The notes under the pieces were generated by a model. That model ran no database searches, was not told the DNA's origin, and saw only the letters and a program-made list of their open reading frames with translations. The translations under genes and the position numbers were made by a program. From a phage, in sequence record PZ809289.1: a DNA stretch of 64,000 nt; one strand, written 5' to 3'. Numbering within the stretch: position 1 is the stretch's first letter; the number at the start of each line of letters is the position of its first letter. This document shows positions 44,581 through 44,924 of this stretch, in pieces.

Positions 44581-44746
44581 GATTTCTGTATTCGAATTAT
44601 TCGAAGAGTATGAAATCGTATCAAAGGACCAAGAAGCTATCCATATTATTGCCGGTGATGGTGTGACTTGGATTATTCCACTTTACCACGAAGATACGTA
44701 CGAAGTCACTGATGCAAATGGTGATAAAGCTATTTTCGTAATATAA
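44555..44746 (+). CDS. Hypothetical protein (63 aa)
   Basis: RBS AAGGGAA before ATG 44555; track start 44537. Confidence 0.4.
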   Translation: MSAMCTGSKISVFELFEEYEIVSKDQEAIHIIAGDGVTWIIPLYHEDTYEVTDANGDKAIFVI

Positions 44747-44749
44747 ATA
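44742..44749 (+). promoter_or_regulatory. T4-type late promoter box TATAAATA
   Basis: Exact TATAAATA 14 nt upstream of SD AGGAGC of ORF 44763. Confidence 0.45.
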
Positions 44750-44762
44750 AGGCCAGGAGCCT

Positions 44763-44924
44763 ATGAAATCTTTTAAAGAAGTTATGAACGAAGATATGGT
44801 CGCAGGCGATGCAGGTGGAAACCCATCTAATATTGCCTCCGGAACTACCTCAGGCGCAGTCGTCAACAAAGGGCCTGAACAAATCCCATCTAAAAAGCGT
44901 AAAGAAAAATCCGAAAACGAATGA
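44763..44924 (+). CDS. Hypothetical small Gly/Ser-rich protein (53 aa)
   Basis: Strong RBS AGGAGC; absent from ORF track, which shows a minus-strand shadow ORF here. Confidence 0.45.
   Translation: MKSFKEVMNEDMVAGDAGGNPSNIASGTTSGAVVNKGPEQIPSKKRKEKSENE

Follow-up and report, generated by a model that had tools for sequence, protein, structure and literature searches.

Gene 61.1 of a Dhakavirus as a candidate late-transcribed gene for a head-targeted, protease-trimmed peptide

The 64,000-nucleotide stretch of phage DNA analysed here (referred to as the window) carries, immediately 5′ of its primase gene, a short interval in which ORFs on both strands overlap and a late-promoter motif is found within an early replication cluster. 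This raises the question of which strand is coding, when the gene is transcribed and what its product might do. The first-pass annotation of this DNA had proposed a small plus-strand ORF behind a late promoter and a Shine-Dalgarno (SD) sequence, and had regarded the 110-aa ORF on the minus strand as unsupported. The motif (TATAAATA, of the T4 gp55 type), the SD sequence (3 nt 5′ of the ATG), the 53-codon ORF and the translation quoted for it (MKSFKEVMNEDMVAGDAGGNPSNIASGTTSGAVVNKGPEQIPSKKRKEKSENE) were all found where that annotation had placed them (Table 1), and the primase gene (gene 61, 342 aa) indeed starts directly downstream, at position 44963. The best reading overall, to which we would give a probability of roughly 0.6, is that the ORF is a late-transcribed gene for a head-targeted, protease-trimmed peptide.

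Table 1. Features of the locus upstream of primase gene 61 in the window
Feature	Position	Strand	Basis or remark
Late-promoter motif TATAAATA (T4 gp55 type)	44742–44749	+	Predicted transcript start around A44755
Shine-Dalgarno AGGAG	44755–44759	+	Same geometry in other lineages; would be the very 5′ end of the late RNA
Gene 61.1, 53 codons plus TGA (44922–44924)	44763–44924	+	phrog_1823, annotation in relatives, codon substitutions
Leader MKSFKEVMNE, codons 1–10	44763–44792	+	CTS-like; putative prohead-protease (gp21) site M-N-E↓D
Core DMVAGDAGGNPSNIASGTTSGAVVNKGPEQI, codons 11–41	44793–44885	+	Homologue of the N-terminus (N-fist) of mature gp23*
Lys-rich tail PSKKRKEKSENE, codons 42–53	44886–44921	+	Sequence composition
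GC hairpin GGCTCT-ATTAATTT-AGAGCC	44931–44950	+	After TGATATAAT (44922–44930); no U-tract here
Spurious 110-aa ORF, TTG start	44621–44953	–	No PHROG match; outside the feature

A conserved protein-coding gene immediately 5′ of gene 61

The window belongs to a Dhakavirus and is 99.9% identical to Escherichia phage QL01 across the locus. The 53-codon ORF had been presented as a gene missed by ORF calling; it proved to be real but not missed, as it is already annotated as gene 61.1 ('gp61.1 hypothetical protein') in QL01, IME08 and LQ5. Small accessory genes (dmd, 61.4, sp and others) lie on one side of it and primase gene 61 on the other. Its product matched phrog_1823 end to end (E 5e-32), and tblastn retrieved 61.1 beside the primase gene in 1,441 phage records, with hosts including Escherichia, Klebsiella, Aeromonas, Acinetobacter and Vibrio. 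Moreover, when a core of 27 codons was compared in the plus frame, the ratio of synonymous to non-synonymous codon changes was 16:2 against VR25, 11:1 against a Karamvirus and 15:4 against a T4-type phage. Because of the family match, the 1,441 records, the synonymous bias and the lack of any match for the antisense frame, we conclude that 61.1 is a real, strongly conserved protein-coding gene and that the minus-strand ORF is not. Although the latter is the longest ORF over the interval, its TTG start, the absence of a match to it in the PHROG search, a substitution pattern that suits the plus frame and the plus-strand call made by every public annotation leave it virtually no chance of being the real gene, in line with the doubts raised at first pass. 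Its frame is stop-free in most lineages compared, a side effect of sense-strand codon usage (Gly/Ala/Ser/Thr).

Gene 61.1 has been listed among the conserved T4-family ORFs without identified function, and few others that are shared by the whole T4 superfamily still lack an assigned one (PMC1524935). Our literature search retrieved no paper that assigns gp61.1 a function or a virion location, or that describes a late promoter or a targeting leader for it. Neither the short nor the long form of the protein (see below) matched Pfam, the defence profiles of PADLOC returned nothing for gp61.1, and Rfam had no match within 44300–45100; some copies are automatically named 'major capsid domain-containing protein' by NCBI and UniRef. 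The orthologue in T4 (NP_049649, 54 aa) occupies the same site 5′ of gene 61 and is about 80% identical over residues 1–42. Unlike the window, however, T4 has neither the late-promoter motif nor the 3′ hairpin described below, and there is next to no space between its genes 61.2, 61.1 and 61. Because T4 has lost both elements, the model phage hides the clues to 61.1 that its relatives retain.

On the other side of the primase gene, a 66-aa membrane-like ORF (phrog_2024) was observed on the minus strand at 45988–46188, between primase and gene 56, where its overlap with the primase stop amounts to 4 nt. RB69 (ORF029w), QL01 and ValerieMcCarty04 (VMC04_22) each have an ORF of about this size on the opposite strand at this site.

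Late-promoter motif and 3′ hairpin at gene 61.1

The TATAAATA motif lies 13 nt ahead of the 61.1 ATG, in the orientation upstream of the gene that a T4-type gp55 promoter requires, and the TAA stop (44744–44746) of the upstream plus-strand ORF (44537–44746) falls inside it. Four exact copies are present in the window against 6.2 expected from shuffled sequences, so the motif is not above chance and appears depleted. All four are on the plus (coding) strand, 13–89 nt 5′ of ORF starts. Besides the copy at 61.1, they are located at 688–695, 83 nt before ipIII (start 779; internal head protein), at 8240–8247, 89 nt before an rI-type lysis-inhibition gene (start 8337; phrog_1246), and at 46804–46811, 31 nt before soc (start 46843; phrog_1715). 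The ipIII, rI and soc families are expressed late in T4.

The region upstream of 61.1 was compared across 41 IMG/VR loci and GenBank records. At least five lineages carried an exact TATAAATA 13–27 nt before the ATG: Dhakavirus, Gaprivervirus (VR25/VR7), Karamvirus (CIP9, Kosakonia phage 305), a Klebsiella group (MY02, VAC36) and Tegunavirus (TG1, phiR1-RT). Most of the remaining lineages had AATAAATA, GATAAATA, CATAAATA or TTAAATA at the equivalent site. Late promoters of T4 relatives have this motif at –13 to –6, with an A at –13 and CTAAATA as accepted variants (PMC1524935). Across the 85 nt upstream in a 12-lineage alignment, TAAATA was the sole invariant block besides the start codon; it was kept throughout while the flanks diverged and at least four different genes preceded it, and in some lineages it overlapped no stop codon. 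In a very distant metagenomic relative, the order is terminator, CTAAATA, a 251-aa 61.1 homologue, terminator and primase. No TATAAATA was found upstream of 61.1 in T4 (within 5 kb), 44RR, RB43 or MP1. The late-promoter predictions published in 2006 likewise hold nothing convincing at 61.1 in RB69, RB43 or 44RR (PMC1524935). Two of the predicted sites, 44RR Pl:17513 (inside the 61.1 ORF; locus L050:1972–2014) and RB43 Pl:17714 (after the 61.1 ORF; locus L049:2173–2215), lack a good TATAAATA and were set aside as probable false positives.

The 13-nt gap between motif and ATG is atypically short when compared with the 18–83 nt found for about 15 bona fide late genes of QL01. With such a gap, the leader of the late RNA would be only about 8 nt long and the SD sequence would stand at its very start. 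Karamvirus and Jiaodavirus have an equally short gap, which speaks for its being functional.

At the other end of the gene, right after the 61.1 stop, a GC-rich hairpin was found with a fold z-score of –4.0. Nearly all non-T4 lineages have such a hairpin; it is kept in 13 lineages with stems that vary in sequence, and four of its six pairs show compensatory changes. In some lineages a U-tract follows, as in a canonical terminator, whereas the window has CAAGGAAAAA instead; a scan for sigma-70 promoters and terminators called no plus-strand terminator at the window hairpin and nothing else relevant on that strand.

The conserved motif, the covarying hairpin and the insulated distant relative together suggest an autonomous late unit within the early cluster. 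Specifically, a gp55-type promoter at TATAAATA would start an RNA around 44755, and this RNA, which would end at the hairpin or be stabilised by it, would add to that made by early read-through. We regard it as likely that in this lineage 61.1 is a small self-contained late transcription unit with these two boundaries, and its expression probably has an early component as well, from read-through of the kind that reaches ipII and ipIII in T4.

The claim made at first pass, that a late gene is embedded in an early replication cluster, is thus indirectly supported by the conserved motif, the hairpin or terminator and the presence of homologues in virions (see below), and fares less well on the early transcription of 61.1 in T4 and the short leader. 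The last two points would fit an ordinary early/middle gene, served by upstream read-through only as in T4, at which TATAAATA is an incidental product of an xTA codon, a TAA stop and an AT-rich spacer. Indeed, T4 61.1 is listed with an 'early' transcript and a protein undetected in whole-cell proteomics, although ipII and ipIII of T4 also combine an 'early' transcript with a 'late' protein in that list (PMC9697503, Table S2). The absence of the motif within 5 kb in T4, its chance-level count in the window and the stop codon inside it point the same way. However, such a coincidence sits poorly with a motif that is kept behind at least four different upstream genes and amid diverged flanks, is free of stop overlap in some lineages and is insulated by terminators on both sides in one. 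Since late-type genes follow all three remaining copies in the window and homologues of gp61.1 occur in virions, we consider exclusively early/middle expression unlikely, and retain the late unit as the preferred reading.

The 61.1 stop together with the next bases, TGATATAAT, forms an exact extended –10 consensus (TGnTATAAT) just before the hairpin, and 'ATGG' is invariant in 13 lineages. A transcript from TGATATAAT would be without the 5′ arm of the hairpin, and the element could act as a promoter for primase that interlocks with the terminator or stabiliser of 61.1; no –35 element or MotA box was seen within 44922–44962.

Leader, putative protease site and kinship with gp23

The first ten residues of gp61.1 (MKSFKEVMNE↓D, with the arrow marking the putative cleavage site) resemble the capsid-targeting sequence (CTS) of the internal proteins IPI, IPII and IPIII. 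In T4, IPII and IPIII start with MKTYQEFIAE↓A and IPI with MKTFKEF, and T4 gp61.1 starts with MKTFKEFIKE↓D, a near-perfect targeting sequence from which the window leader has diverged further. A six-frame scan of the window and 60 kb of QL01 (about 124 kb) for MK[ST][FYW][KQRE][ED][FVILM] matched only annotated or IP-like genes, 61.1 and UvsW.1. Targeting relies mainly on residues 4 and 7 of the leader and processing on residues 8 and 10 (PMC9026906). Residues 4 (F) and 10 (E) of the window leader fit this scheme, and residues 7 (V for F) and 8 (M for I) are conservative departures from it. The candidate site has Met rather than Leu/Ile at P3 and Asp at P1′, while most homologues have L, I or V at P3 and all have E at P1.

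The hydrophobic-x-E triplet stands immediately before (D/E/S)MVAGD throughout the family, despite indels, and does so in both a short form of 51–57 aa and a long one of about 155 aa (phrog_2086). Of the two, the latter is the more widespread, occurring in RB69, RB43, KVP40-type and S16-type phages, Tegunavirus and MP1, and it has an unrelated N-domain of about 105 residues before the same ...L-x-E↓(D/E/S)MVAGD... module. No relative of this N-domain was found in the PDB, nor any resemblance to the gp23 propeptide past about residue 47. A search of 1.84 billion representative proteins yielded 56 clusters, made up of both forms (a few with extra C-terminal domains) and of gp23 N-termini, and in all 56 of them a hydrophobic-x-Glu directly precedes the conserved core. 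In RB69 the long form is annotated as two ORFs (ORF032c and a 92-aa 'gp61.1'; L048:4318–4784) where close relatives have a single 155-aa ORF, which may reflect a frameshift or a split introduced by sequencing or annotation.

Sequence searches also linked gp61.1 to the major capsid protein. BLASTP aligned it with residues 55–99 of QL01 gp23 (E 1e-8; 38% identity over 45 residues), residues 3–41 of gp61.1 pairing with residues 58–96 of gp23. Only T4 gp23 chains were matched in a search of the whole PDB, with E 2.4e-3 for the single sequence and E 8e-7 for the family profile. The alignment superposes M-N-E↓D on the gp23 maturation site L-T-E↓A, and DMVAGDAGGNPSNIASGTTSGAVVNKGPE of gp61.1 on AEIGGDHGYNATNIAAGQTSGAVTQIGPA of gp23, the latter holding the 25-residue N-fist of gp23*; the motifs GD.G...NIA.G.TSGAV...GP are common to both. 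The N-fist is disordered and interior in the unexpanded head, is externalised upon expansion, contacts four subunits and helps to form the Soc site (PMC9546572, PMC9958956), and mutations of A66, A94 and G97 in the same segment of gp23 change head length (PMC9546572). No similarity to gp61.1 was found among the gp24 paralogues, and gp61.1 gave no match to the HK97-fold body (Pfam Gp23, PF07068), which starts at gp23 residue 86. AlphaFold2 predicted no confident fold for the 53-mer alone (pLDDT 58, pTM 0.16).

Homologues in purified virions and the proposed role

Published mass spectrometry places homologues of gp61.1 in purified particles of two phages. LC-MS/MS of Yersinia phage phiR1-RT particles identified Gp036 ('gp61.1 conserved hypothetical protein') by 9 unique peptides and 61.9% coverage, ranking it among tail-fibre and baseplate proteins in the rows considered (PMC6893735, Table S3). 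The phiR1-RT protein is of the long form and its gene has an exact TATAAATA at –35; the 62% coverage of this long form indicates that its N-domain is retained rather than discarded as a propeptide.

CsCl-purified virions of the Klebsiella Jiaodavirus ValerieMcCarty04 yielded three strong peptide matches to a 55-aa homologue, WKM80554.1 (MKTFKEFVKLNEEMVAGD...), in the part of Data S2 considered (PMC13119998). The layout of this phage is the same as that of the window, with AATAAATA, 13 nt, ATG, ORF, hairpin and primase. The peptide E.EMVAGDAGGNPQNIASGTTSGAVVNK.G (E.EMVAGD...VVNK.G) was seen twice (E 3e-16, scores 90 and 65) and E.MVAGD...VVNK.G once (E 2e-15), and the tryptic parent K.LNEEMVAGD... 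was absent among the matches listed. The longest form observed among them therefore starts directly after L-N-E, the predicted gp21-type site. Abundant proteins in the same part of these data also show ragged semi-tryptic ladders, but with their tryptic parents present, and non-structural proteins were listed in both positive data sets (PMC6893735, PMC13119998). The long-form homologue of Morganella phage MP1 (gp027), whose gene has no late-promoter motif, was not among the 58 virion proteins identified for that phage, and 61.1 is unmentioned in the T4-head supplements of PMC5694885. Virion association and cleavage position are thus shown for homologues in other genera, from which we infer them for gp61.1 of the window.

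These data suggest a path in which gp61.1 (53 aa) would be directed to the assembling prohead core by its CTS-like leader and would then be cut after Glu10 by the prohead protease gp21. The cut would release a 43-residue peptide that ends in the Lys-rich tail, with an N-terminus that copies the first 25–30 residues of gp23*, and this mature peptide would stay with the virion. On the sequence features and the homologues together, the balance leans towards such targeting, cleavage and retention.

In that case, gp61.1 would probably be a new member of the class of leader-targeted, gp21-processed head proteins, with an unusual origin and location. Like T4 IPI, IPII and IPIII, it combines an MK(T/S)(Y/F)xE(F/V)..E↓ leader with a late-promoter motif (ipIII of the window also has TATAAATA upstream), and its homologues occur in virions, with the leader removed in the Jiaodavirus peptides considered. 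Unlike the IPs, however, it is much smaller, and its mature part, which is paralogous to a segment of the capsid protein, is roughly net neutral rather than basic (six basic and six acidic residues by our own count). Its gene lies in the replication cluster instead of at the ip loci, and where the short form has its leader, the older form (about 155 aa) carries another N-domain. The likeness to the gp23 propeptide junction and N-fist (residues about 55–96) extends to superposed cleavage sites and common motifs, although the HK97-fold body of gp23 is missing. The prohead core proteins gp67 and gp68 are likewise small, late, protease-processed components of the head interior (PMC5694885), but unlike 61.1 their genes are in the head-gene cluster.

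As to what the peptide does in the head, gp61.1 might act in trans as a free N-fist that is separately encoded, delivered by its leader and unmasked by gp21. It would then occupy N-fist or scaffold sockets (e.g. at vertices or the portal) or compete with the gp23 N-terminus, and could tune head length, expansion or Soc binding. This extension is speculative, and we hold it to be unlikely in this specific form.

The gp23 homology (residues 55–99) could also be read as that of a cytoplasmic mimic or decoy of the gp23 N-terminus, which titrates a host sensor, chaperone or protease, or competes for scaffold, and is no structural cargo. The neighbourhood of small accessory genes (dmd and sp among them), the early transcription in T4 and the disorder predicted for the protein alone would be compatible with such a role. 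A decoy, however, needs neither the conserved protease-type site, nor a processed N-terminus in virions, nor a late promoter. Moreover, gp61.1 matched no defence-related profile, and its similarity to gp23 ends short of the Gol region, which we take to be gp23 residues about 93–122. A link to Lit/Gol was set aside on this ground, and a decoy function appears improbable.

Finally, 61.1 might serve primase expression or replication, either as a cistron translationally coupled to gene 61 or through a product that is a primase/helicase accessory. The order 41 ... 61.1 – 61 is kept in very distant relatives, the 61.1 stop and gene 61 start of T4 are only 2 nt apart, and a predicted fold pairs the 61.1 stop region of the window with the gene 61 start. 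Such a role nevertheless accounts for neither the targeting leader nor the virion data nor the homology to gp23, and it is the peptide sequence itself that is under strong purifying selection. To our knowledge, T4 replication in vitro does not need gp61.1 either, and we consider a primase-related role highly improbable.

Delivery to the head and trimming by gp21 therefore remain the preferred reading, and the comparative and published mass-spectrometric evidence points to an overlooked small virion component, derived from the N-terminus of the capsid protein itself and encoded inside the replication cluster. If true, one more component would be known of an intensively studied head, a minimal substrate found in nature would be at hand for both the targeting leader and gp21, and the role of the N-fist region in assembly would become easier to probe.

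Further ORFs with leaders of this kind were noted. UvsW.1 (75 aa; QL01 locus L004:14777–15004) starts with MKTFKEVIQE↓A, a CTS-like leader with an I-x-E site, and QL01 uvsW has TATAAATA 28 nt upstream. In phiR1-RT particles, a 76-aa 'DNA helicase', Gp188, had a score of 196.7, the highest in the Table S3 rows considered, with 71% coverage (PMC6893735); taking Gp188 as UvsW.1 from its size and name only, UvsW.1 may be another unrecognised head cargo. In the window, two further plus-strand ORFs, at 1907–2206 and 2679–2936, have canonical leaders (MKTYQEFITE...), and both are distinct from the IPs that QL01 carries there. One of them matches phrog_2667 ('internal head protein'), and the other, which matches a PHROG over its first 16 residues only, is a candidate for a lineage-specific internal protein.
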